From Candidatus Hodarchaeota archaeon (lineage in GTDB: Archaea; Asgardarchaeota; Heimdallarchaeia; Hodarchaeales; Hodarchaeaceae): DNA of 55,069 nt. Shown piece after piece: positions 5,884-42,346 of the stretch (position 1 is its first letter; each line of letters opens with the position of its first letter). The notes under the pieces are model-generated. The model ran no database searches and was not told the origin of the DNA. It saw only the letters and a list, made by a program, of their open reading frames with translations. A program made the translations under genes and the position numbers. Location: NCBI GenBank assembly GCA_029856365.1, contig JAHQWW010000014.1, forward strand, positions 1 through 55,069. The letters are read 5' to 3'.

Positions 5884-6642
5884 GTGGTATATACACTAGC
5901 AGTCATCTCAGATATTCACGCGAATATAGTGGCATTGGATGCTGTACTGAAAGACATTGAAAATAATTTCCCAGAAGTGATAGAATATTTATGCCCAGGA
6001 GACCTTGTTGGATATGGACCTAACCCTACTGAAGTGATTACTAGAATAATCAAAGAAAAATTTGTAGCAGTAACAAAAGGTAATCATGATCATGCTATAG
6101 GAGGTGGAGGCAGGGATATCGCTAATTTCGATAAATATATTAGCAATTTTAATAGATATGCTCAACAAGCAATTAAATGGCAAGCTCAAAAATTAACCCC
6201 TGAAGAAAAAACATTCCTATATCAATTACCCAGTTCACGAACCGTCTCTCACAAGAGCTATGAGATCAGCATTTCTATAATACATGGTTCCCCCCAATAT
6301 CCATTGGATGAATATATTCGGCCGAATACTCCTCAACAAAAGGATCTTTTCTCATTCATGGAGCTATTCGAGATAGGAATATTACTACTCGGCCATACTC
6401 ACATCCCATTCGTTGATAAGAGTCAATCATCTGAAACAGGTCAAGATATTTTGATGTGTAATCCCGGAAGTGTAGGTCAACCTCGTGATAGGGATCCTAG
6501 AGCTAGTTATGCTGTTCTCGACTTAGAAACACTTTCAGCAGAGATAATCAGAGTCGATTATGATATTGACGAAGTAGTGAAAAGAATCAATGAAACTGGA
6601 TTACCTGCTTTTCTGGGGGAACGATTGCAAAAAGGAACATAA
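5884..6642 (+). CDS. calcineurin-like metallophosphoesterase (MJ0912/YfcE/Vps29 superfamily)
   Basis: SDIHAN, GDLVGYG, GNHD, HGSP, GHTH, NPGSVGQPRD all intact. Confidence 0.92.
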   Translation: MVYTLAVISDIHANIVALDAVLKDIENNFPEVIEYLCPGDLVGYGPNPTEVITRIIKEKFVAVTKGNHDHAIGGGGRDIANFDKYISNFNRYAQQAIKWQAQKLTPEEKTFLYQLPSSRTVSHKSYEISISIIHGSPQYPLDEYIRPNTPQQKDLFSFMELFEIGILLLGHTHIPFVDKSQSSETGQDILMCNPGSVGQPRDRDPRASYAVLDLETLSAEIIRVDYDIDEVVKRINETGLPAFLGERLQKGT

Positions 6643-6667
6643 TTCGATCATCGTGGTGCTTAACAAG

Positions 6668-7204
6668 ATGACAATAGAATTAGAAAATGATGTATGGTGC
6701 TTTAAAATCATTGTTGCTGGAGAAGCATCAGTTGGTAAAACTACTTTAGTTAATCGCTACATCGCTGGTAAGTTTACTTCCGAATATAAGGCGACTATAG
6801 GTGTAGACATTTTCACTAGAGAAGTAACTTTTCAAAAAAAAAATGATAATTTTCGCGTGAAGCTACTAGTTTGGGATATCGCTGGACAATCATTATTTCG
6901 GGCTTTTAGAAAGAAATTCTTTGAAAATGCTCGAAGTGCGCTTCTTGTATTTGATCTGACGGCACCTAACAGTCTAAATCAGCTTAATTCATGGATAAAG
7001 GATATTCACGAAGTAACTGGTGATGTACCTCTAATTTTAATAGGTAATAAATCAGATTTAAAGGAGCTCATTGAGGTTAAACCTGAAGAGATCAGTATTT
7101 TTATTGATCAACATCCAAATGTTGTATTAAATTTTAATACATCTGCTTTGACTGGCAAGAATGTCGAAGCAGCTTTTCTTGGGTTAATTTCTCAAATCAT
7201 ATAG
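6668..7204 (+). CDS. Rab-like small GTPase
   Basis: G1 GEASVGKT, G2 ATIGVD, G3 WDIAGQ, G4 NKSD, G5 SAL. ATG 6668 avoids overlap with the upstream gene. Confidence 0.93.
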   Translation: MTIELENDVWCFKIIVAGEASVGKTTLVNRYIAGKFTSEYKATIGVDIFTREVTFQKKNDNFRVKLLVWDIAGQSLFRAFRKKFFENARSALLVFDLTAPNSLNQLNSWIKDIHEVTGDVPLILIGNKSDLKELIEVKPEEISIFIDQHPNVVLNFNTSALTGKNVEAAFLGLISQII

Positions 7205-7362: not shown

Positions 7363-7875
7363 TTGAAATATAAGATAGTATTGACGGGAGACGGGGCGGT
7401 AGGGAAGACCTCGTTAATCAACCGGTTTGTTACTGGTTCTTTCACGGGGGATTATAAAGCCACAATTGGTGTTGCTATTACTTCGAAGAGCCTCGTTGTT
7501 CAAGATCAAGAAATTTACCTGCAGATTTGGGATATCGCTGGCCAGACACTTTTTCGACAGTTTAGAAAAAAGTTTTACACAAAAGCTAAAGGAGCTTTGT
7601 TAATCTTCGATTTAACAGTACCTAAAAGCCTAGATAATCTTTATTCTTGGATTGAGGATATTCAGGACATCACAGGAGAAATTCCATTTGTTTTAATTGG
7701 AAATAAGGTGGATTTAAAGGAATTACGAGCGATTTCTCAACAAGAAATAGCTGGGTTTTTGGAAGACAATATAAGTATTTCAGCTTACTTTGATACATCT
7801 GCACTCACTGGAGAGAATGTTGAGAGCGCATTTCATGAATTAGTCTCTCAAATCTCATCTTTTAATTATCAATAG
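7363..7875 (+). CDS. Rab-like small GTPase (tandem paralog)
   Basis: GDGAVGKT, ATIGVA, LQIWDIAGQ, NKVD, SAL; GAGGT Shine-Dalgarno-like sequence before TTG start. Confidence 0.93.
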   Translation: MKYKIVLTGDGAVGKTSLINRFVTGSFTGDYKATIGVAITSKSLVVQDQEIYLQIWDIAGQTLFRQFRKKFYTKAKGALLIFDLTVPKSLDNLYSWIEDIQDITGEIPFVLIGNKVDLKELRAISQQEIAGFLEDNISISAYFDTSALTGENVESAFHELVSQISSFNYQ

Positions 7876-8186
7876 TAAATAGTAAGCGGATATTCGCCTC
7901 ATAAAAACGAAAAATATGAGAAGGAAACATGTTGTACATATTTATGGTTGATTTCAATTTACAAGGTATCTAATATTGCGTTTCATAATTTTTTTTTACT
8001 GGAAAGAATATCTGATTCACATCTTTTTATTTCAATAAGATCCAGCTAACCATTCTTCTAATTCAAACAACAATAAAAGGAAATATCAAAGTTTTTATAA
8101 TATTCTCGTGTGTTAGTATATTGTCTAGTTTTACTAGTTTTATTGATTTAATTCTCTTTTTAGATAACAGGATTGTGTTATTAAAT

Positions 8187-10481
8187 ATGAGGATAGATGA
8201 TATCTCTGAAGATATCCCACCTCAATTTAAAAACCATGTAAAAGATCTTCTTAAACAATACAATAAGAAGTACAGAGATGCAATGAACGCGCTTCGTGAA
8301 AGTGAAGAGAAATACAGGATGTTATTTGAAGAAGCTCCAATCCTCATCATATTACTTGATACAAATGGTAGAATCATTGACTGTAATGATGTTACAGGAA
8401 CAATAACGGGTTTAACAAAAAAAGAAATACTAGGTAAGCACTATAAAAAAATAGGTATATTTTTAAGGCAAGATCTCCCTAAATATGTTACTCTCTTTGA
8501 TAGTTGTTTAGAAGGGTCTGATATAACCCCTATTGAAGTAAGAATAAGAGATAAAAATGATCGTATTCATTATCTTGAAGCATTTTCGACATTAATTTTA
8601 AAAAAAGATGAAGTTAAAACTATTCAAGTTATTGCTCATGACATTACAAAACGTAAACTTGCGGAGGAAGCCCTACAAACAAGTAAGGAGATGTACAGAA
8701 CCTTAGTAGAAACAATGAAAGATGCTGTGGGTATTCTTGATAACAATGGTTTAATCATCTATGCTAACAAAAGAACTTTCGAAATGCTAGGATATTCTCA
8801 AGACGAAGTACTTCATCATCCTGTCACAGATTTCTTGGATGAAGAAAACCAAGACATTTTGAGAAAGCAATTATTCAAACAAAGAGAAAGAATAATTGAA
8901 AATTATGAACTTAGATGGACACGGAAAGATGGTTCTAAAATCAACACTATTGTATCACCAAAACCTCAATTTCATGAAGATGGGACAATTAATACCTATT
9001 TTGCTGTAGTAACAGATATTACAGAATGTAAGCAGGCAGAGGAAGAGCTAGAAAGAACAAAAAATGAAAGAGAACAAATATTAAATTCCTTAGTTGAGCA
9101 TGTTGTATTCCAGGACTTACTACAGAGAGTTTTGTGGGCAAATAAATCTGCTTGTCAATCCGTTGATAAAAAACTTGACCAACTAGTAGGAAAATATTGT
9201 TATGAAATTTGGCCTCAGAGAAGAGAACCTTGCATTGGATGTCCAATCTTTAAAGCTATTAATACGAGAAAACCACAAGAGAATGAAATAACTACTCCTG
9301 ATGGAAGAATGTGGTTTATTCATGGTAGTCCTGTCTTTGATAATAATGGTAAGATTATTGGCGCAGTAGAAACAACATTAGAAATTACTAAACGCAAGAA
9401 AGCAGAGAATGAACTCCGTGAATCCAAAGAGAAATATAAGATGCTTGTTGAAAAACTAAGAGAAGGAGTTTTATTGGAGGATGTTGGGGGATTTATTTCT
9501 TTTGTAAACCCAAGAACAGCAGAAATGCTAGGTTATTCGGAAAATGAGTTATTAGGCAAACATTACAGTTTTCTTGTCCCAGAAGAGGAGCTCGATAAAA
9601 TTAAAGCTGAATCTTCAAAACGTGTGAAGGGAATTAGTAGTACTTATGAAGCAAGTCTATTAGCAAAAGATAACCATTGTATTCCAGTTATTGTCACAAC
9701 AACTTCAGTTATTTCCCCAGAAGGTGAATTTAAAGGAGCACTTTCAGTCTTTACTGACATCACAGAACGTAAACTAATAGAAGAGGAAAGGAGGAAATTA
9801 GCAGAAAAACAAAGAGAATTCATGGATCAGATTGCTCATGAGTTAAGAACTCCTCTTACAGTTATTAAAGGATATACCGAATTCCTTTTGACACGTGAAA
9901 AGAATACAGAAAATAAACATATCTTGAATACCATTATGAATAATGTTGCTCGATTAGAAGAACTAGGATCCAGTGTCAGTGACCTTTACCGTATTGAAAG
10001 AGGCAAATTTGAAGTATTTTTAGAAAAAATGGAGCTTTGTGGCTTTATATCAGAGTTTTTAGAACCTTATCGAAAGTTGTATGAAGGACAAATTTATTTT
10101 GATAGTTCTAGGTTAAAAAATCAAATTTTTATTTATGGTGATCCTAAAAGACTGAATAATGTTTTGAATAATGTTCTTGATAATGCAATTCGAAATACAC
10201 CACGTGAAAATAGAAGGATAAACTTGGAACTGAATCTTACTGAACAAAAAGTCGAGTTAATAGTAATCGATAATGGTGCTGGGATAAAACCCGAAAATTT
10301 AGATAAAATATTCGATAAATTTACGTCATTTCCGACCAAGTATGATATCACAGGAACAGGAATAGGCCTTTACCTTGCTCGGAAAATAATCAACGCCCAT
10401 AATGGATCGATAAGCGCATACAGTAAAGGAGAGGATCAGGGAACCGAAATTAAAATAAAACTTCCAAGAATGCGTAAATAG
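8187..10481 (+). CDS. cytoplasmic multi-PAS (4x) sensor histidine kinase
   Basis: Repeated PAS/PAC ends (HDIT, TDIT, LEIT, TDIT), H-box AHELRTPL, N-box DNAIR, DNGAGI, GTGIGL. ATG 8187 preferred. Confidence 0.93.
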   Translation: MRIDDISEDIPPQFKNHVKDLLKQYNKKYRDAMNALRESEEKYRMLFEEAPILIILLDTNGRIIDCNDVTGTITGLTKKEILGKHYKKIGIFLRQDLPKYVTLFDSCLEGSDITPIEVRIRDKNDRIHYLEAFSTLILKKDEVKTIQVIAHDITKRKLAEEALQTSKEMYRTLVETMKDAVGILDNNGLIIYANKRTFEMLGYSQDEVLHHPVTDFLDEENQDILRKQLFKQRERIIENYELRWTRKDGSKINTIVSPKPQFHEDGTINTYFAVVTDITECKQAEEELERTKNEREQILNSLVEHVVFQDLLQRVLWANKSACQSVDKKLDQLVGKYCYEIWPQRREPCIGCPIFKAINTRKPQENEITTPDGRMWFIHGSPVFDNNGKIIGAVETTLEITKRKKAENELRESKEKYKMLVEKLREGVLLEDVGGFISFVNPRTAEMLGYSENELLGKHYSFLVPEEELDKIKAESSKRVKGISSTYEASLLAKDNHCIPVIVTTTSVISPEGEFKGALSVFTDITERKLIEEERRKLAEKQREFMDQIAHELRTPLTVIKGYTEFLLTREKNTENKHILNTIMNNVARLEELGSSVSDLYRIERGKFEVFLEKMELCGFISEFLEPYRKLYEGQIYFDSSRLKNQIFIYGDPKRLNNVLNNVLDNAIRNTPRENRRINLELNLTEQKVELIVIDNGAGIKPENLDKIFDKFTSFPTKYDITGTGIGLYLARKIINAHNGSISAYSKGEDQGTEIKIKLPRMRK

Positions 10482-15377: not shown

Positions 15378-17441
15378 TTAATTATTCAGGATCTCTAATG
15401 TTCGACGAATTCTCTCTCTCAAAGCCATTTTTTCCTGAATAATTTCTTCTATTTCTTGTGAAATAGCATTTCGTTTTTCCTTCTCTCGTGGTATTGGCAA
15501 AACCAAATCCATTAGTCGATTTCCTAGGGTTGAAATTGTTGATTGAATGAACGTCTTTGCTCTTATTTGATCTTGTACAATATCCGTATTAAGAGCCCAC
15601 AATAATAGGTTTTCATCTAAAAACTCTTTTTTCACTACTCTTATCTTTTTCAGATGGCTTTGGATAAGAATTTGGGTATCCTTCTCTGTTATCATTGCTG
15701 TTTTCCCTATTAAAAACGTACCATCATTTACTAATAGAATATCTCCAGCTCTAATATCCTGTTTGTCTTTATATAGCTCATATACCTCCCTTGCGACTTG
15801 TTTTTTTGGATCAATATTAATTTCCCAGTTAATAAGATCTGACGTTCTTACGAATGGAATTGGACCAGTACCATAAAATTTGGATCCTATTTCGTGTCCC
15901 CGTGTTATTTGAATTGTTCCTTTTTTTACTAAGTCACCAATTCTAACCAGTTGATATTTCCCCTCGTTTTCAATGATATATAAACGTTGAGCGATCTCTG
16001 GATTATAGTACTCGGGAATGAGAATTTGGTTCTCAATCTGGGAGCTCGTAAAGATAAAGCCTAAGTGTGATTGATCTTGCAAAGTACCCGCTCTAAATTC
16101 TCTATAATTTTCGACTATTTTGGGAAAGTCATCATTAATTATCTTATTTCCATTAGTATCTAGTATGAAATTTCCTTTATTATCTATTAGGTAGAGTGGT
16201 TTGCCGTTTTTATCGTGTCCAACGTTTTCTGTAATAGCCATAAATAAAGAATAATCTTGTTGCGGCTTACGTTTTTCTACGAACAGGAGTGATGTTTTAG
16301 TATGTGTGTGGGGGAGAAATGCGAGATGTGAACAGCTTATTAACGCTAGGATTTTCACATGTTGTCGTAAATAGTATAGAATGTATCGATCTGAAGGATT
16401 TCCAAAGATTCCATCTGGTAATATTATTCCTAATCGACCACCTGGTTTCAGAAGCTTAAGACACCGTTCAATAAAAAGTATTTGAGGTGGTTGCTTCTCT
16501 TGAAGAGTTTCGGTTTTATGCCAAGATCCATCAGCTTGTTTCTTCCATTTATGACCTAGATGGTAATCACGTAATATTTCCTTCGATTTAATGGGTATTT
16601 TTGCTCCAAATGGTGGATTTGTGCATACTATATCAAAGCTATTTAGTTTAATTGTTTCGAATACCTTTGAACTCCAGCTCTCCGGTGGATTTAGGGAATT
16701 TTCACAAAATACTACTTTTTCTTGGAAACCCAGTATAGCTAGATATAGTTGAGTAATCTTTGCTAGAAACTGATCCTTGTCAATCCCGAATAATACATTC
16801 ATATTATATGGTTCTTGTACACCTTTATTCTCATTTTTTTTTGTTTGTTGAGCTAATCTTACTATTAGAAATCCACCTGTTCCACAAGCAGGATCTATAA
16901 ATCGCTCGTTTGGCTTTGGATCAAGGATTTCAATCATTGTCTGAACTATATTTCGGGGAGTAAAGAATTGTCCTTTGTTACCTCTGAGTGATGGTCCAAG
17001 AAATATTTCAAATGCATCTCCAATTGCATCACGACTTGCTTTTATGATACTAAACTTTTCAATACTCTCCACTATTGAAGTTAATGATGTTTCATCCACA
17101 AACAATCTATCGTGGTCATCAAACATTGAGCTGTATTGGTTTTTGAGCTGATTAAATAGCAGAGTTACTCTTTCTAATATGTTACTATTTGAATAAATAT
17201 CATGGTAATTTAATTGGAAGAGAACTGGCTCATCAGGAGAACCAGTTAATTCGTCATAGATCTTACAAAACAAAAGAAAGATTAGCTGTTCAGCGAGTCT
17301 TTCGTCTCTAGTTGTTCCAACGAAATTTCCAGCAAGGTGATTTCGCATTCTCTTAAAAATTTGTTTTAAATCTTTAACCTCAACTAAATCTTTACGATAG
17401 ATTATCTTATTTGCGTCAGATGCCAGAACGGATCTCACCAC
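15378..17441 (-). CDS. N6-adenine DNA methyltransferase fused to a single TRD (HsdM-half-HsdS fusion)
   Basis: GQFFTP, DPACGTGGF (motif I), NPPF (motif IV), GIILPDG; C-terminal TRD (IPFVRTSDL, GDILL) plus LPIP-helix; no nuclease domain. Confidence 0.9.
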   Translation of the reverse strand: MVRSVLASDANKIIYRKDLVEVKDLKQIFKRMRNHLAGNFVGTTRDERLAEQLIFLLFCKIYDELTGSPDEPVLFQLNYHDIYSNSNILERVTLLFNQLKNQYSSMFDDHDRLFVDETSLTSIVESIEKFSIIKASRDAIGDAFEIFLGPSLRGNKGQFFTPRNIVQTMIEILDPKPNERFIDPACGTGGFLIVRLAQQTKKNENKGVQEPYNMNVLFGIDKDQFLAKITQLYLAILGFQEKVVFCENSLNPPESWSSKVFETIKLNSFDIVCTNPPFGAKIPIKSKEILRDYHLGHKWKKQADGSWHKTETLQEKQPPQILFIERCLKLLKPGGRLGIILPDGIFGNPSDRYILYYLRQHVKILALISCSHLAFLPHTHTKTSLLFVEKRKPQQDYSLFMAITENVGHDKNGKPLYLIDNKGNFILDTNGNKIINDDFPKIVENYREFRAGTLQDQSHLGFIFTSSQIENQILIPEYYNPEIAQRLYIIENEGKYQLVRIGDLVKKGTIQITRGHEIGSKFYGTGPIPFVRTSDLINWEINIDPKKQVAREVYELYKDKQDIRAGDILLVNDGTFLIGKTAMITEKDTQILIQSHLKKIRVVKKEFLDENLLLWALNTDIVQDQIRAKTFIQSTISTLGNRLMDLVLPIPREKEKRNAISQEIEEIIQEKMALRERIRRTLEILNN

Positions 17442-19389: not shown

Positions 19390-20031
19390 TTAAAGATATA
19401 TTATACCAGTCTGAGAAAACCCAAAGTTGCGAATGAAACTATATGATACTTTGTTCTCATGGTATACTTCGCATACTAGTTCCATTACATTATTTTCTGC
19501 AAAATAACTCGCAGCTTTCGCTGCTAAAAGAAATGCAATTCGTTTACGTCGATAACGTGGATCAACTCCTATCCCTGCTATAATACCCTGTTTACCTAAG
19601 TGTTTTCCCTGTTTGATTAATGGTTCTATAACCAAAAATACAAAACCGACAATCCGTCCGTATATTTCGGCTATAAATGTAGAGTCTGGTTTGAAATGTT
19701 GTACATCTTCTAAAGTTAACGAGCGATAAGGGTCAGGTGCAGTAATGAAAGCCCTGTTGTAACAACGAATAAATTTTTCTGAATCTTTATTCGGATTAAA
19801 TTCTCTTATTTTTACTTTTCTTAGTAATTCTTCTCTATCATCATCTATTTCTTTTTCTATTTGTTTCATTACTGTTAATGCTTGATCCCAGCTCATTTTC
19901 ATTACAAAGAACTTGTATTTTTCTTTTATCTTCTTTTCATCTTTTTTTTTCTTTTTTGATATAGAATTTCGAAAAAAGAGTCGTCTAAGTTTGACGGACT
20001 CTCGTTCAGAGGGATCTGTTTTAATGGGCAT
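19390..20031 (-). CDS. GNAT family N-acetyltransferase with Lys-rich N-terminal extension
   Basis: GRIVGF, IGVDPRYRRKRIA (motif A), N..SYSF...GF. Confidence 0.85.
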   Translation of the reverse strand: MPIKTDPSERESVKLRRLFFRNSISKKKKKDEKKIKEKYKFFVMKMSWDQALTVMKQIEKEIDDDREELLRKVKIREFNPNKDSEKFIRCYNRAFITAPDPYRSLTLEDVQHFKPDSTFIAEIYGRIVGFVFLVIEPLIKQGKHLGKQGIIAGIGVDPRYRRKRIAFLLAAKAASYFAENNVMELVCEVYHENKVSYSFIRNFGFSQTGIIYL

Positions 20032-22019: not shown

Positions 22020-22415
22020 TCACGGATCAAAGGAGGGTTGTTGCATGTACATTTTTTTAATCGAGACTAACTCACCATTTGTAAGAGTTAAAATTCCAAG
22101 TTTATTTGCAAGTTCCCGAGCTGTCGCTGAGAATTGGTTTGCGCAAACCATAACCTTCGCTAAACCGGGCGTACTTGTTTGTAGCCTTTCAGCTTCTAGT
22201 ATGACATTATACCCACACGATCTAGCCCAATCTTTAACTATTACTCCAATTTTTCCGCCTATATCGATATTCTTATCTTTTGATTGATGAACCAAGTAAG
22301 AAAATTGAACTTCTTTATCATTCTTAGCCCTTATAGTGACATTTGAATCAAAGTCAAATTGTCTGAACCGTAAAAAATCTCTCACTAAGTTATTCAACTC
22401 TAATTCCATTTCCAA
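22020..22415 (-). CDS. restriction-endonuclease-like (Mrr_cat-type) fold protein, apparently degenerate active site
   Basis: 'VIVKDW...V...MVCANQFSATARELANKLGILTLTNGEL' matches the Mrr_cat C-terminus; expected catalytic D and E/Q absent. Confidence 0.65.
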   Translation of the reverse strand: MEMELELNNLVRDFLRFRQFDFDSNVTIRAKNDKEVQFSYLVHQSKDKNIDIGGKIGVIVKDWARSCGYNVILEAERLQTSTPGLAKVMVCANQFSATARELANKLGILTLTNGELVSIKKMYMQQPSFDP

Positions 22416-23036
22416 CCGACCATAACTGAGCTCAATAGCCCTATAGTTCTAACTCAATCATACTTAAAAAACTTTACCAACGGTATTAACTAGAGTAGTA
22501 CCCTTTCAATGCAATCGACTTTTCAGAAGTAACAATAAATATTCATCCTCTATTGAATCCTTGCCTTTTTTCGTCGGTTGAAAATACATATAGTAATAAA
22601 GAATGAATTTTTAGAATTACTGAGGAATTCTACAACTTAGCCTTCGAATCCTCTTAGAATTGTTATTGAGATCAATTTCTACTATAATAGTTCTTATTAC
22701 AGTTTTATTAAGAAATATCTAAACTTTAAATACCATTATGATGATTTTAAATCCATTTCCTTGTCTTATTGAATAAAATATGAATCTTTGTGCACTTTTT
22801 TATTCTGTTATGCGTTTTCTTCTTATTCTAGTATTTTTAAAAGAAGTTGCTGTTGGAAAGATAAAGCGCTGAGGATAAATAGCAATCCTCATTTCTACAT
22901 ATCTTAGATAGAATACACTAACCTTTTTAGTCTTTATGAGCTAATTATTTTTTAAAGTCAGATTCTTGACATTGACTCAACAGGAAAGCTCTGATTCTAG
23001 ACAAAATTTTTCAAAAGATAAACTATAAGATCACCA

Positions 23037-24161
23037 GTGGAGAAACAAAGCTTAATGTCAAAAAATCAAAAACAAGATGTCCAATTGGGCTTCGATCATA
23101 AAGAATGTTGGCAAATATTAAAAAAAACTGGTATTCCACGTGTATCAAAGGATAGTGTCGAAGCACTAAATAAATTAGTAACACGACGAGCCCGAGAACT
23201 TGCTACAAAAGCAGTTACTTTGGCTGCAGAAAAAGATCGAGATGAGGTTTTAGAAGAAGATTTCACACAAGCAGTAAGAATGTCATCTATTTCAACATAT
23301 GAAATTGGACAAGAGGCACCTTTTGTACATTATGTGTGGTTTATCAGTTCAGGGGGAACATGTCTTCTAAGTCGTTCTTATTCTGGATTAAAGTTTCCTG
23401 ATACGATCTTTAGTGGGCTATTGACTGGAATTTTAGATCTTATGTCAGAAGTTACTGGTAGAATGATTGAGAAGTTTTCAACTGATGATCTAACTATTCA
23501 CATCAGACGAATAGCAGATATTACAGTCGCAGTCATTTGTGATAGTGAACAAAGCGATCCTATTGATGAACTAACTGATTTATTAGCTTTCAGATTCGCT
23601 GATGTCTTTAACGAAGAAATACAGAAGGAAGTCATAGATACAAGCATCTTCGATGATTTTGCTCCAGTCTTAGATGCCCTAGTTGCTGGATCAGGTTTGA
23701 AAATTCCTATGGAAAGTTTAAGAATCATAAAAACCAGTGCTAGTCTAACTGACAAACAACTTGAGGAAACTGTCGATGCTGCCGCATTACGAGAAGAAAT
23801 GAGACGAGCACAGGAACGAATTCAAGATCTTGCTCTTTTTAAAACAGATGATAAAATCAAAGCTGCCAAAACAGCTAAAATAGAGTCATTATTTCATGAG
23901 TCTCCTGATGTTACTGAAATAAAAGCCGTATTGCGACAAGCCACAAAAGATATTAGAGAAGAATTCAATGGTGAGGAAGAACTTTCTCAGGAAGAATCAG
24001 TTGTTCAGGATATTTCACGAGAGGAAGTTTTGCAAGAGATTTCAAAAGATTTTCCAGAAATTACAACACAAAAGAAAAAACAAAAAGAAAAAACCGATAA
24101 AAAACCTATTAAGAAACCTAGAAAGAAATCAAAAAGAAAACGAAGAAGAAGGAAAAAATAG
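23037..24161 (+). CDS. histone-fold + longin-like domain fusion with polybasic C-terminal tail
   Basis: aa 17-82 align with HMf-type histone (ILKKTG..RVSKDS...A..AV.LA....R..V..ED...A); aa 96-216 longin-like (FSGLLTGI...SEV); tail 21/29 K/R. Confidence 0.75.
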   Translation: MEKQSLMSKNQKQDVQLGFDHKECWQILKKTGIPRVSKDSVEALNKLVTRRARELATKAVTLAAEKDRDEVLEEDFTQAVRMSSISTYEIGQEAPFVHYVWFISSGGTCLLSRSYSGLKFPDTIFSGLLTGILDLMSEVTGRMIEKFSTDDLTIHIRRIADITVAVICDSEQSDPIDELTDLLAFRFADVFNEEIQKEVIDTSIFDDFAPVLDALVAGSGLKIPMESLRIIKTSASLTDKQLEETVDAAALREEMRRAQERIQDLALFKTDDKIKAAKTAKIESLFHESPDVTEIKAVLRQATKDIREEFNGEEELSQEESVVQDISREEVLQEISKDFPEITTQKKKQKEKTDKKPIKKPRKKSKRKRRRRKK

Positions 24162-24202: not shown

Positions 24203-26929
24203 TTAATGCCTGCTTTCTTTTATGAATTGTTGGTCTTTTTGACTGATACCATATAACTTAAAAACAAGAAAATCTATTTCTTCTTTTTGTTCTAATAATC
24301 TTGATAGTTCTTTTTCTATGACCGTATTCCAAATTCTTGGCTTTTCTAATTGTTCCTTCAATGAATAGTGGTCTAGGATTTCATTACTTAAACAGTATCT
24401 TAAAAATTGACGTTGAAAGGTGAATGAATAACCTGAATCTTGAAAGATATTCCAGAGTTTAGTTAAAGCTACTGCAATGTTATTTCCTATTTTTAAACAT
24501 TCTTTTACAGTTGTTTCAAGTTGAATGATAATTAAATCATCATCTATTGCATCAATATCTATAAGTGGGAATGTTTTCAGATCGTTTACCCGTATTTGGG
24601 GATAGCGACTTGAAGTTTTTTTTGCTTTACGAATGATGTTTAAATGCTCACCAATCCAATTTCCTAGCGATGAATTTAATATTCCAAGGATTAGAAGTAG
24701 TGAGTATGGTTGTTTCGGATTGTAGATCAAATGAGTATTTCTAAGAGAAAAGAATTGCTGGTCATCAAGAGTTGCGATAAACCTAGTAGCAGTTTGTCTT
24801 AGAATAATTTTCGGAGTAATAAAACGGTTTGAATTCCCTGAAATCATTAATATTTTCTTTTTTTTCTTAGAAACATCTTGGTTTGAGTCTTGAAGTTGTT
24901 TCTCATATTTTTTGTCAAATCTAACATAGGAATTTGCTAATCCTGGAACCCAAAAGAGGATATAGGGTTGTGGTAAACCATTCGAACCGTCAATAACGGG
25001 ATAAAAGTTTTTCTTGGCATGATCAGATAAAAAATGCGTTTTTAGTAAGCCACCGTATTCTAAACCACATGAAATAGATGCTAATTGACCAAGTGGCTTA
25101 GATTTTTCTTGAATATGAGAAAAGAAAAGTGGAGATTCCTGATATCTGAATATATAATTGAGGTGAGATAAAAAATGATTTTGAGAAATTCTTTGTGGTT
25201 TTCTTTCCAAAGATTCTTGCCAAATTATCTCATGATTAGATTTTGTTTGATTTCTCAAGATCAGAAGGGATAAATCAACCACAGCTGTTTTTTTGTAGTT
25301 ATAATTTGCTAGAACATAGTATAGATGATAATTCGATAGAATAAAATTCCGAATCCTCGCATAGGAAGGTAAATCTAGGAAAGAATGATCAATAACAAAA
25401 CCTAAAACACCATTCGAAGCTAAGAAATATTGTAAGCAAATACCAAGAAATAATAAGTAGGTATTGTCTCGCTTTCCGCTAAATATTGGTAATAATCGCT
25501 GAAGAGTTATTAGCTCATTCTTTAGAGATGATTCTTTGGCAAAACGGCTATGGAAAGCGAGATATGGGGGATTTGAAAGGATTATATCATATTTAGGTAA
25601 TGATTTGTCTGTATTGGCTTGATTGACAAAAAATTCAATGAAATCTCCTTGTATTAAATTGCAAGCAAACCTTTTTTTAGCTAGTTTTATCCTACAAAAT
25701 AAATCCAGGAAAATGCTGCAAATCTGAATGCAGTCTTGGTCTATATCATTCCCAAATATACTAGAAATGAGAATTTTCCTTCTTAAATCAATAAAAGAGT
25801 TCTCTACTAAGGCATTTGACATCATAAGGTTTGTTATCCATTCTAATGCAAATACAAGGAGAATTCCAGTTCCCATTGCTGGATCAAATATTTTTATGCT
25901 AGTAATGGTTTTGATCGATTTCTTTTGATTAAAACTGGCAAACGAATGAGCAACAATGGCCTCTGCAAGCTTAACTGGGGTGTAAAATCCGCCAATTTTT
26001 TGATATTTAACCTCACTATAGATCTGTGAAGAAATCTCAATCAAATAGATCAGGTGAAAATCTAGAAACCAATAACTATTTATCTGAGTGAGACTTTGTA
26101 CAGTTTGACGAAAATGTTCCATCAGTGAATCAAGAAAGTAAATATTCTCTAATTTGGAAATAAGCTCAGGATAATTAATATTACTTAACTGTTTGTAAAT
26201 TTTATCGAGGTCATTTATTTCTTTAAGAGGGAGAGAGATTAATTGATAATTAATTATCTCAAGAAGGCAATTTTGGATAGCTGTAAAAGTATTAGCCAAT
26301 AAAATGAAACGGTGAATAATAGATTTATCTTTTAACTCTTTAGGTAGATGCTTCTTCATATATTGTTTTAAGAACCCTAATAATTGTGTTTTTACGTGGT
26401 CAATAAGGCTCCATCTTAAAGAATCATTTAGAGCTTCTAATTTTGTGCTATCTAACAATATTGAAGCCAGAAACAACTCATCTAAACCAGAAATAATAGG
26501 AGACCAAATTAAAAGGTGATTATTGGAAAGAGAGAATATGTAAGTTGATTTTTGATTAATCAAACAAACCCAATCGATTGGATCAGAAATCAATTCATTT
26601 CGAATCAATTGTAAGATATAGAAGTACTTTTTTTGACTGAATAATTTATGTATTGGAGTTTCTTGGAGATAAATAAAACTAATTTTTTTAAATTGCCAAA
26701 ATAAGTCACTTTTATTTATTCTATTTTGATAAAAAATCTCATTGTAATCTTTTTTTCTTATTTGTTCAACTAAACTTAAGAAAAACTGATAACGAGTTGA
26801 ATCCTGGTTGTGAATTAGAGATTCTAAAGTATCTAGAATGATATTTAATTGCGTACGATTTGGTAAAGCTGGGATTAACGAAACAGGAATATTGTTTTTC
26901 AAAAGAAGAGGATATAAACTACTTTGCAT
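24203..26929 (-). CDS. Eco57I/TaqI-type (gamma class) N6-adenine DNA methyltransferase with C-terminal TRD; no evident nuclease
   Basis: GGFYTP, DPAMGTG, GNDID, NPPY, PKIILRQT, LLGILNS-like motif, YPQIR. Confidence 0.85.
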   Translation of the reverse strand: MQSSLYPLLLKNNIPVSLIPALPNRTQLNIILDTLESLIHNQDSTRYQFFLSLVEQIRKKDYNEIFYQNRINKSDLFWQFKKISFIYLQETPIHKLFSQKKYFYILQLIRNELISDPIDWVCLINQKSTYIFSLSNNHLLIWSPIISGLDELFLASILLDSTKLEALNDSLRWSLIDHVKTQLLGFLKQYMKKHLPKELKDKSIIHRFILLANTFTAIQNCLLEIINYQLISLPLKEINDLDKIYKQLSNINYPELISKLENIYFLDSLMEHFRQTVQSLTQINSYWFLDFHLIYLIEISSQIYSEVKYQKIGGFYTPVKLAEAIVAHSFASFNQKKSIKTITSIKIFDPAMGTGILLVFALEWITNLMMSNALVENSFIDLRRKILISSIFGNDIDQDCIQICSIFLDLFCRIKLAKKRFACNLIQGDFIEFFVNQANTDKSLPKYDIILSNPPYLAFHSRFAKESSLKNELITLQRLLPIFSGKRDNTYLLFLGICLQYFLASNGVLGFVIDHSFLDLPSYARIRNFILSNYHLYYVLANYNYKKTAVVDLSLLILRNQTKSNHEIIWQESLERKPQRISQNHFLSHLNYIFRYQESPLFFSHIQEKSKPLGQLASISCGLEYGGLLKTHFLSDHAKKNFYPVIDGSNGLPQPYILFWVPGLANSYVRFDKKYEKQLQDSNQDVSKKKKKILMISGNSNRFITPKIILRQTATRFIATLDDQQFFSLRNTHLIYNPKQPYSLLLILGILNSSLGNWIGEHLNIIRKAKKTSSRYPQIRVNDLKTFPLIDIDAIDDDLIIIQLETTVKECLKIGNNIAVALTKLWNIFQDSGYSFTFQRQFLRYCLSNEILDHYSLKEQLEKPRIWNTVIEKELSRLLEQKEEIDFLVFKLYGISQKDQQFIKESRH

Positions 26930-41608: not shown

Positions 41609-42346
41609 ATGATGGCTCAAGATCAATTTTATTCCGAAAGACCTTTAGTTCATCAACATATTGTTCTCATACAAATTGATAAATTGTTTTGTCATGAGGA
41701 AGTTGTACAGAGCCAAGTGGAATGGTTAAAAAATAACCTAAAAGAACTTGGATATTTTTTCCGTCCGATTTTAGTTGCAAAAAACGAGAATGTTATTCTA
41801 GACGGTCATCATAGATTGGTTGCACTTAAAGAACTGGGTGAAGAAAGAAGAATAGAAAAAATAAAAATTCCGTGCGTTGAAATTGAATATGTTGATAACC
41901 CAGAGATTACACTTGGTACATGGCATCCCATTTACGTTGAAATAAGACCTATTGGCTTTCCAGCAGAGTTTAAGAAAATTGGAGTCAAATGGAAAAAAAT
42001 ACATACTTTCTCACAAAACATCTTAAATAACCCTAAATACGGCTTTACGCTCAAAACAATGGAAGGGAACTATTTTAGTTTGAAGGGAACACAACAGGAT
42101 ATTTATAAAAAATTTCTTAAACATTATGAACCTGAATCTTTTGAATATGCTAAAACACTCGAATATGCAATTCAATCTGTTGAAGCTGGTCGAGCATCAT
42201 TCGCTCTTTTACGAACACGAGTCACAAAACAAGATGTTATTAAAACAGCTAAAAATAAGGAGCTCTATGCACCTAAAACAACACGACATATTCTTTCATT
42301 TCGATATCAAGACATAAAGGTACCTTTAGAAACTTTATTTTCTTAA
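41609..42346 (+). CDS. serK: ParB-like fold free serine kinase (SerK-like)
   Basis: HE, RPILV, DGHHR, TWHP, PKTTRH, about 245 aa; matches the recalled Thermococcus SerK layout. Confidence 0.7.
   Translation: MMAQDQFYSERPLVHQHIVLIQIDKLFCHEEVVQSQVEWLKNNLKELGYFFRPILVAKNENVILDGHHRLVALKELGEERRIEKIKIPCVEIEYVDNPEITLGTWHPIYVEIRPIGFPAEFKKIGVKWKKIHTFSQNILNNPKYGFTLKTMEGNYFSLKGTQQDIYKKFLKHYEPESFEYAKTLEYAIQSVEAGRASFALLRTRVTKQDVIKTAKNKELYAPKTTRHILSFRYQDIKVPLETLFS

Follow-up and report, generated by a model that had tools for sequence, protein, structure and literature searches.

A histone fold-longin fusion protein conserved in Hodarchaeales, with a predicted doubly paired homodimer and a polybasic tail

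Introduction

The closest described relative of the gene reported here was mentioned in one sentence by Hocher and Warnecke (2024, Genome Biol Evol, PMC10919886), as a fusion of a histone fold with a Roadblock/LC7 domain in Hodarchaeales, and no function was given. We identified an ortholog, belonging to the same family, in a stretch of 55,069 nucleotides from a Candidatus Hodarchaeota archaeon (contig JAHQWW010000014.1, positions 1 to 55,069; hereafter the window). It is the open frame at 23037-24161 (+), with 374 codons counted from GTG, and its product is laid out as a histone fold, a longin domain, two conserved helices within an acidic region and a polybasic tail. The initial annotation of this DNA knew of no description of the architecture; it is already in print (PMC10919886), and so the gap concerns function and not discovery. 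The central domain is Roadblock/LC7 in that paper, whereas topology and structural matches point to a longin domain here, and the conserved helices, the polybasic tail, the loss of the tetramer interface, the predicted double dimer and the distribution are not mentioned in it. New in this work are the longin identity, the replaced tetramer-interface residues, the homodimer model with double pairing, the restriction of the tail to the main family and, in the sister family, an Arf gene two genes upstream.

No further mention of the fusion came to light. It is absent from two histone surveys (PMC11390915, PMC13260811). A 2026 preprint on Asgard chromatin reports six histones of a cultured Hodarchaeon, of which HMpC is a histone of 72 residues and not the fusion, and the longin motif is absent from its supplements. 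The Asgard longin/Roadblock paper (PMC10933270) holds no histone fusion, and full-text literature searches for longin together with histone fold in archaea gave no result.

The archaeal nucleosomal histones (HMfB, HTkA and the Hodarchaeal HHoB) share with the fusion protein the three-helix fold, G16, the R19-V-S of loop L1, the R52...D59 pair and a predicted handshake dimer. However, the fusion protein is five times longer, reads RDE for RKT in this copy, and has Glu at the position of His49 and a polar residue at that of Leu62. Histone folds also serve as dimerisation or DNA-contact modules in larger proteins, such as SOS, TAFs, NF-Y and CENP-T/W/S/X. These proteins are a lead only; beyond the fold, the fusion protein has no sequence relation to them (weak TAF matches only), and none of them is joined to a longin domain.

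The eukaryotic longin platforms (TRAPP Bet5/Trs23, Mon1-Ccz1, Fuzzy-Inturned (CPLANE), AP sigma/mu and COPI zeta/delta) are alike in fold, with Z of 11-14 over 117-127 residues, in a tentative profile link to Bet5, TRAPPC1 and Mon1, and in a predicted dimer through helix a1 and strand b3. Unlike them, the fusion protein has one longin domain and not three, would be a homodimer and not a heterodimer, is joined to a histone fold and is a putative GTPase binder; no TRAPPC3-type or adaptin partners of it are known. The Asgard longin and Roadblock proteins, including longin-GTPase fusions (Tran et al. 2024, PMC10933270; PDB 8yqg, 9jue, 7f8m), belong to the same Asgard expansion of dimer-forming modules, and Roadblock and longin dimers are established small-GTPase platforms (PMC10933270). 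The longin domain of a Lokiarchaeota Roadblock-Longin protein aligns to that of the fusion at Z 9.6, but the described Asgard longin/Roadblock proteins have neither histone fold nor polybasic tail.

Results and Discussion

Conservation and distribution

The fusion gene is real, conserved, single-copy and restricted to one order, Hodarchaeales. We found 69 full-length homologues (E <= 5e-39) in many assemblies, with identity of 56-97% to the database members; several are labelled Hodarchaeales by NCBI, and the public annotation is "histone-like protein". Matches of this number and strength lie far outside chance. In a survey of 399 genomes sampled from the phylum, with E < 1e-45 as the level for orthologs, the gene was present in 19 of the 21 genomes of its own family and in both genomes of a sister family in the same order, and in none elsewhere. 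Orthologs are usually single per genome and have no internal stops; the genome of this archaeon has one copy, and two ortholog-bearing genomes, of 3.2 and 4.9 Mb, are single contigs. In other classes the weaker matches are longins that stand alone and lack a histone fold. Divergent fusions, 35-40% identical, belong to the sister family and to a few unplaced metagenomic contigs, and most of them have acidic ends.

An assembly chimera, or a mis-called open reading frame (ORF) joining two genes, would also give such a fusion, and the chance of this is negligible. The same continuous frame is present in all 69 database proteins, including those from single-contig genomes, and no internal stops interrupt it. 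The architecture is conserved and therefore the chimera objection fails, so the fusion that was first read from the letters of this DNA is a genuine one.

The true start is probably ATG 23055, which would give 368 residues, because all homologues begin at the residue aligned with M7 (MSKNQK..). Residue numbers throughout follow the 374-residue version from GTG 23037. The features of the gene are listed in Table 1.

Table 1. Features of the fusion gene and its upstream region in the window.
Feature	Position (nt)	Strand	Basis
Whole ORF, histone fold-longin protein	23037..24161	+	ORF list, homologues
Upstream AT-rich intergenic region, including six doubtful codons from GTG 23037	22416..23054	+	ORF list, sequence
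Histone fold alpha1-L1-alpha2-L2-alpha3, aa 19-82	23091..23282	+	Pfam, NCBIfam, PDB matches, AlphaFold2 (AF2)
Longin domain bb-a-bbb-aa, aa 96-218 (model-based)	23322..23690	+	Domain model, structural comparison, wider profile
Helical net acidic region, aa 221-345, net charge -10, low-confidence model	23697..24071	+	AF2, charge count
Conserved helix motif LTxxQLEExVDAxALRxEL..A...I..L.LF, aa 237-268	23745..23840	+	Column identity 0.81
Second conserved helix PPDVxEIKAVLRQAxxDIREE, aa 288-311	23898..23969	+	Column identity 0.79
Polybasic tail, aa 346-374, net +19	24072..24158	+	Residue count

Histone fold

Pfam PF00808 (CBFD_NFYB_HMF) covers residues 26-80 with 22.4 bits in the whole protein, and with 26.7 bits (E 6.7e-6) when residues 1-95 are searched alone; the curated cut-off is 21.4 bits. 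With about 65 residues and a profile score above the cut-off, the segment belongs to the histone-fold superfamily. The NCBIfam model archaea_histone (NF043032) gave 40.8-43.3 bits (E 3.5e-11), which is below its cut-off of 50. Sequence matches in the PDB included the histone-fold protein 1f1e of M. kandleri (E 6.6e-6) and HMfB (E 4.5e-3), in a range to 7.6e-3, and AF2 placed helices at residues 21-30, 38-65 and 73-82. Within its own genome, the fusion protein is the weakest histone-fold match but one.

These results bear out the histone pattern that the initial annotation had noticed in the N-terminal part, and its residue readings proved accurate too. The L1 arginine is kept as R35, and so is the buried salt-bridge pair as R68 and D75. 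Loop L2 reads R68-D69-E70 where canonical histones have RKT, and the helix-1 arginine is missing, with Q26 at the position of HMfB R10. So the canonical DNA-contact set (Arg10, L1 Arg19, L2 Lys53-Thr54) is here Q26, R35, D69 and E70, and is not kept as a set.

Among 42 family members, the L1 arginine (R19) is kept in 41, D59 in all 42 and R52 in 37. The L2 pair is variable: the K53 position is K or R in 10/42 and E or D in 27/42, and the T54 position is T in 20/42 and E in 19/42. A histone fold with no DNA contact had also been suggested. This holds for the present copy, with its acidic L2 and net charge of +1, but not for the family, in which the lysine or arginine at L2 persists in those ten members and the mean charge of the fold is +4.0. 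For the same reason we rejected the statement that the histone fold of the fusion is less basic than canonical ones, since it is true of this copy and not of the family, canonical histones having 0 to +7.

In HMfB, His49 and Leu62 build the four-helix bundle between dimers. E65 and Q78 occupy these positions here; across the family the His49 position is Glu in 32/42 and the Leu62 position is polar in nearly all. Judged from the aligned residues, replacement of the polymerisation interface is family-wide, and therefore the histone-fold dimer should not polymerise into hypernucleosomes.

The genome of this archaeon (G000) also encodes canonical histones, eight singlets and one doublet of 142 residues, which all keep H..GRKT. 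The doublet (contig C54:13348-13758 (-)) carries an RKT loop in each of the two histone folds of its single chain, and several of the single histones bear Lys-rich N-terminal tails. In addition, a frame of 594 residues on contig C45 has a weak PF00808 match at 7815-7949 (+) (22.1 bits, E 7.5e-4), so that a histone fold may be embedded in this large protein too.

Longin domain

The domain model, built from 42 orthologs, had a predicted local distance difference test value (pLDDT) of 86 and a predicted template modelling score (pTM) of 0.82. It has strands at residues 96-104, 109-114, 146-148, 153-159 and 162-168, and helices at 122-140, 174-196 and 202-218. An exhaustive structural comparison ranked longins first, each over about 120-127 residues: Fuzzy (Z 14.3, 124 residues, root-mean-square deviation 2.7), VAMP7 (Z 13.6), TRAPP Trs23 (Z 13.5), Mon1 (Z 12.9) and Sec22 (Z 12.6). 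Foldseek against longin domains gave E of 3e-5 to 1e-4 and template modelling (TM) scores of 0.55-0.64. Roadblock and MglB chains were lower than the longins, with Z of 8.2-10.4 and a shared core of 91-103 residues.

The Roadblock/LC7 topology (a-bb-a-bbb-a) begins with a helix ahead of b1 and closes with one C-terminal helix. In the model there is no helix between the end of histone helix 3 (residue 82) and b1 (residue 96), and two helices follow b5, which therefore argues for longin and not Roadblock/LC7; we rejected the latter on this topology and on its lower Z. On the predicted structure, the central domain is a longin domain. The longin-like pattern noticed earlier at residues 96-216 thus stands, with Z of 12-14 to the longins of Fuzzy, VAMP7, TRAPP and Mon1.

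Pfam and NCBIfam gave no match for residues 90-230, and the ortholog profile of the central domain gave chance matches only against the PDB. A profile search of 1.8 billion representative proteins recovered 277 longin relatives, and most of these have the domain N-terminally in proteins of 120-250 residues. Pfam Fuz_longin_1 was matched by 8 of 62 relatives, and others matched Longin, Sybindin or Clat_adaptor_s. A profile of this wider clade reached eukaryotic longins, namely TRAPP Bet5 (E 5e-5), TRAPPC1 (2e-4) and Mon1 (0.01). It took structure and this wider profile to resolve the domain.

The longin domain is the most conserved part of the protein, with a mean column identity among orthologs of 0.85, compared with 0.69 for the histone fold. 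The invariant stretch SGLxFPDTIFSGLLTGILDLMxEVTGR comprises the b2-a1 loop and helix a1.

Two known kinds of longin protein were considered and rejected. A longin SNARE of the VAMP7, Sec22 or Ykt6 type would have a SNARE motif and a membrane anchor behind the longin domain, but the sequence here has no hydrophobic segment and no C-terminal Cys. Nor did any SNARE family match residues 220-374 even at E 10, which by itself would not decide the matter. A subunit of a tri-longin Rab guanine nucleotide exchange factor (GEF), such as Mon1, Ccz1, Fuzzy, Inturned or HPS1/4, does not fit either, with only one longin domain here and the remainder helical or disordered.

Homodimer model and proposed function

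Two copies of residues 15-225 were modelled together and gave a score of 0.61, compared with 0.00 for the best of three controls. A score of 0.61 was reached by 20 of 30 proteins solved as same-chain pairs, and by 1 of 23 solved as single chains. The runs agreed in at least 88% of contacts, with a partner pLDDT of at least 77. The modelled interface comprises a handshake of the histone folds (residues 18-80) and longin helix a1 with strand b3 (residues 118-152), and symmetric longin contacts are seen at 128:128, 147:147 and 148:148. So both the histone folds and the longin domains are predicted to pair. Similar histone and Roadblock/longin dimers have been solved, and the result of the model may therefore reflect this likeness; it speaks for what the model expects and not for actual binding. 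As modelled, the dimer would account for part of the extreme conservation of the invariant longin stretch.

Our preferred reading, which is tentative, is of a homodimeric longin platform that a non-polymerising histone-fold dimer and H1-like tails keep on DNA, and that docks a partner, probably a small GTPase. The two histone folds would form the usual handshake dimer and the two longin domains would pair through helix a1 and strand b3, like solved Roadblock/longin dimers, giving a platform of two-fold symmetry. The histone-fold dimer and the two polybasic tails would hold this platform on a polyanion, most likely DNA. The highly conserved a1 face of the longin dimer would dock the partner; the precedents of MglB, Ragulator, TRAPP and Mon1-Ccz1 make an Arf-, Rag- or Rab-like small GTPase the most likely one. 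The tail may be masked by the acidic helical region. We infer such masking here, as well as the binding to DNA and the nature of the partner.

Acidic region and polybasic tail

The C-terminal region (residues 220-374) matched no Pfam family even at E 10, and a structure search of the Atlas gave no usable look-alike. Conservation of the first helix (residues 237-268) extends to distant relatives, among them tail-less ones and some with no histone fold. Two homologues, P0071 and P0081, have the longin domain and this helix and lack the histone fold, and P0071 ends in a CPICG zinc-ribbon-like motif; both may be true short forms or truncated gene calls.

The tail after the helical and acidic segments has 21 K/R in 29 residues, exactly as counted in the initial annotation. 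It has no Cys, hydrophobic anchor, aromatic residues or amphipathic helix, and it is similar in flavour to the N-terminal tails of the genome's own histones. Some orthologs (P0019, P0024, P0030, P0073) have long H1-like repeats of the KKPVKKATKK type in its place. Only the main family has the basic tail; the sister family lacks it, as do most distant fusions, which end acidic.

The tail can also be read as a membrane device. The protein would then be a membrane-tethered GTPase regulator, in which the histone fold is a dimerisation clamp as in TAFs and SOS, anionic lipids are bound by the tail, and the longin dimer functions as GEF or GTPase-activating protein (GAP) like Ragulator or Mon1-Ccz1. 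In its favour, polybasic tails are known to target proteins to membranes, L2 does not keep its DNA-contact residues, and the closest eukaryotic longin platforms by fold all act on membranes; an Arf-family gene also lies near the fusion gene in the sister family. Yet we consider this unlikely: the composition of the tail offers no Cys, hydrophobic or aromatic residue and no amphipathic helix to a membrane, its longer variants consist of KKP/KKA/KKT repeats, as is typical of DNA binders like H1, the basic tail is lacking in the sister family and in most distant fusions, and the L1 arginine is kept in nearly every member.

A chromatin protein with no GTPase link is another way to explain these features. 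Its histone fold would pair with itself or with a canonical histone and would cap or interrupt hypernucleosomes, the tail would add DNA affinity like H1, and the longin domain would be a module for protein-protein contact or oligomerisation, displaying or bridging chromatin. This agrees with the replaced His49 and Leu62 positions beside retained fold-stabilising residues and L1 arginine, with family histone folds on average as basic as canonical ones, with the H1-like tails of some orthologs and with the public annotation, and the eight single histones and the doublet would be possible partners. We find it rather doubtful, however, as it is the longin domain and not the histone fold that is most constrained, relatives retain the longin domain and the motif helix with neither histone fold nor tail, and L2 is acidic in most members; the homodimer model, moreover, uses both domains and so favours self-pairing over a small-histone partner.

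Gene neighbourhood and links to GTPases

For the DNA-held longin platform with a docked GTPase, hints of the partner come from relatives. P0099 is a longin relative (E 2.5e-10) fused to an Arf-like G domain, and Arf/Roc/Ras domains are carried by a 376-member Atlas cluster whose TM to the longin domain is 0.78. In both genomes of the sister family, an Arf GTPase gene, a SerK-like gene and the fusion gene lie on one strand with short gaps (locus L056, 1765-5056 (-); locus L058, 4328-6858 (+)), and a nucleotidyltransferase-like gene is nearby. The two genomes are related, and therefore this gene order counts as one observation.

The SerK-like neighbour had appeared as a ParB-like gene, but it is a putative serine kinase (ParB/Srx fold), and we did not take it as a partner; its homolog in the window lies 18 kb off beside ThyX. 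That gene, at 41609-42346 (+) between an ECF/CbiQ transporter and ThyX, encodes 245 residues with no Pfam match, and the NCBIfam model SerK (ADP-dependent L-serine kinase) gave 109 bits, far below its cut-off of 380.

Several observations weigh against the proposed platform. In its own genome and genus the fusion gene is monocistronic and has no GTPase neighbour. The ortholog of the sister-family Arf in this genome (G000:C91:38526-39083) is on another contig in an unrelated context, next to genes for a threonyl-tRNA synthetase (ThrRS) and another Arf. Arf-like genes number at least 16 in this genome, and therefore the Arf adjacency may be chance, at roughly 1 in 20. Close longin relatives are fused to winged-helix, MIT or TackOD1 domains more often than to GTPases, and not all roles of longin domains involve GTPases. 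The present copy has an acidic L2 and a fold of net charge only +1. Finally, the sister family and the majority of distant fusions lack the basic tail, and tethering by the tail therefore cannot be the core function.

The domains of these relatives suggest still another possibility, a regulator of one-component type, in which the longin domain would be the input that senses a partner or ligand, with DNA-binding output from the histone fold and tail, parallel to the winged-helix fusions of the same longin clade. Longin relatives indeed carry winged-helix (P0096, P0084, P0105), TackOD1 zinc-ribbon (P0106) or receiver domains; histone folds act in the transcription factors NF-Y and TAFs, and weak TAF and TFIID Pfam matches are seen here. 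But the winged-helix matches mostly reach the Pfam cut-offs at best, DNA binding by histone folds and polybasic tails has no sequence specificity, no conserved target operon lies beside the gene, and we know of no ligand pocket in longin domains. We regard such a sensor as very unlikely.

A more specific form of the DNA-held longin platform would be a chromatin-anchored GEF or GAP, which marks DNA as the switching site for an Arf-, Rag- or Rab-like GTPase, as nucleosome-bound RCC1 does for Ran. By this analogy it could be proposed, but we think it quite unlikely.

In the window, the fusion gene is alone on its own strand, with an AT-rich spacer of about 620 bp on its 5' side. A convergent methylase-like gene of 908 codons ends 41 bp on its 3' side. 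The order conserved at genus level is GNAT, amidohydrolase, metallo-beta-lactamase (MBL), Mrr-like, fusion gene and the 908-residue methylase-like gene. This order is lost further out: the neighbours differ in an ortholog of 73% identity and in five distant fusions. In most genomes of the genus the gene is flanked by the Mrr-like nuclease (22020-22415 (-)) and the 908-residue N6-methylase/TaqI_C-like protein (24203-26929 (-)), and a second N6-methylase of 687 residues (15378-17441 (-)) lies 6 kb upstream, so that the region looks rich in restriction-modification genes. The GNAT acetyltransferase (19390-20031 (-), 3 kb upstream) has a Lys-rich N-terminal extension and is kept throughout the genus; the data indicate no functional link between the two genes.

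Two tandem small GTPase genes of Ras/Rab type (6590-7204 and 7363-7875 (+)), followed by a histidine kinase with four PAS domains (8121-10481), are 16 kb from the fusion gene and show no linkage to it. On contig C91 of the same genome (37975-41260), two tandem Arf-like GTPase genes adjoin genes for a JAB/MPN protease and a ubiquitin-conjugating enzyme (E2). No Rfam families or tRNAs were found in the window.

Significance

Of all archaea, Hodarchaeales are placed nearest to eukaryotes. Two hallmarks of how eukaryotic cells are organised, histones and longin-type GTPase regulators, are here joined in one near-universal single-copy gene. If the protein is only an odd histone variant, it would still add a capping or bridging element to Asgard chromatin. 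If a small GTPase does dock on the longin dimer, with the histone fold and tail bound to DNA, no physical link of chromatin with small-GTPase signalling would be known earlier from a prokaryote. And if it acts as a GEF or GAP on chromatin, a link from chromatin to small-GTPase and membrane signalling would have been already present in the archaeal order closest to eukaryotes.

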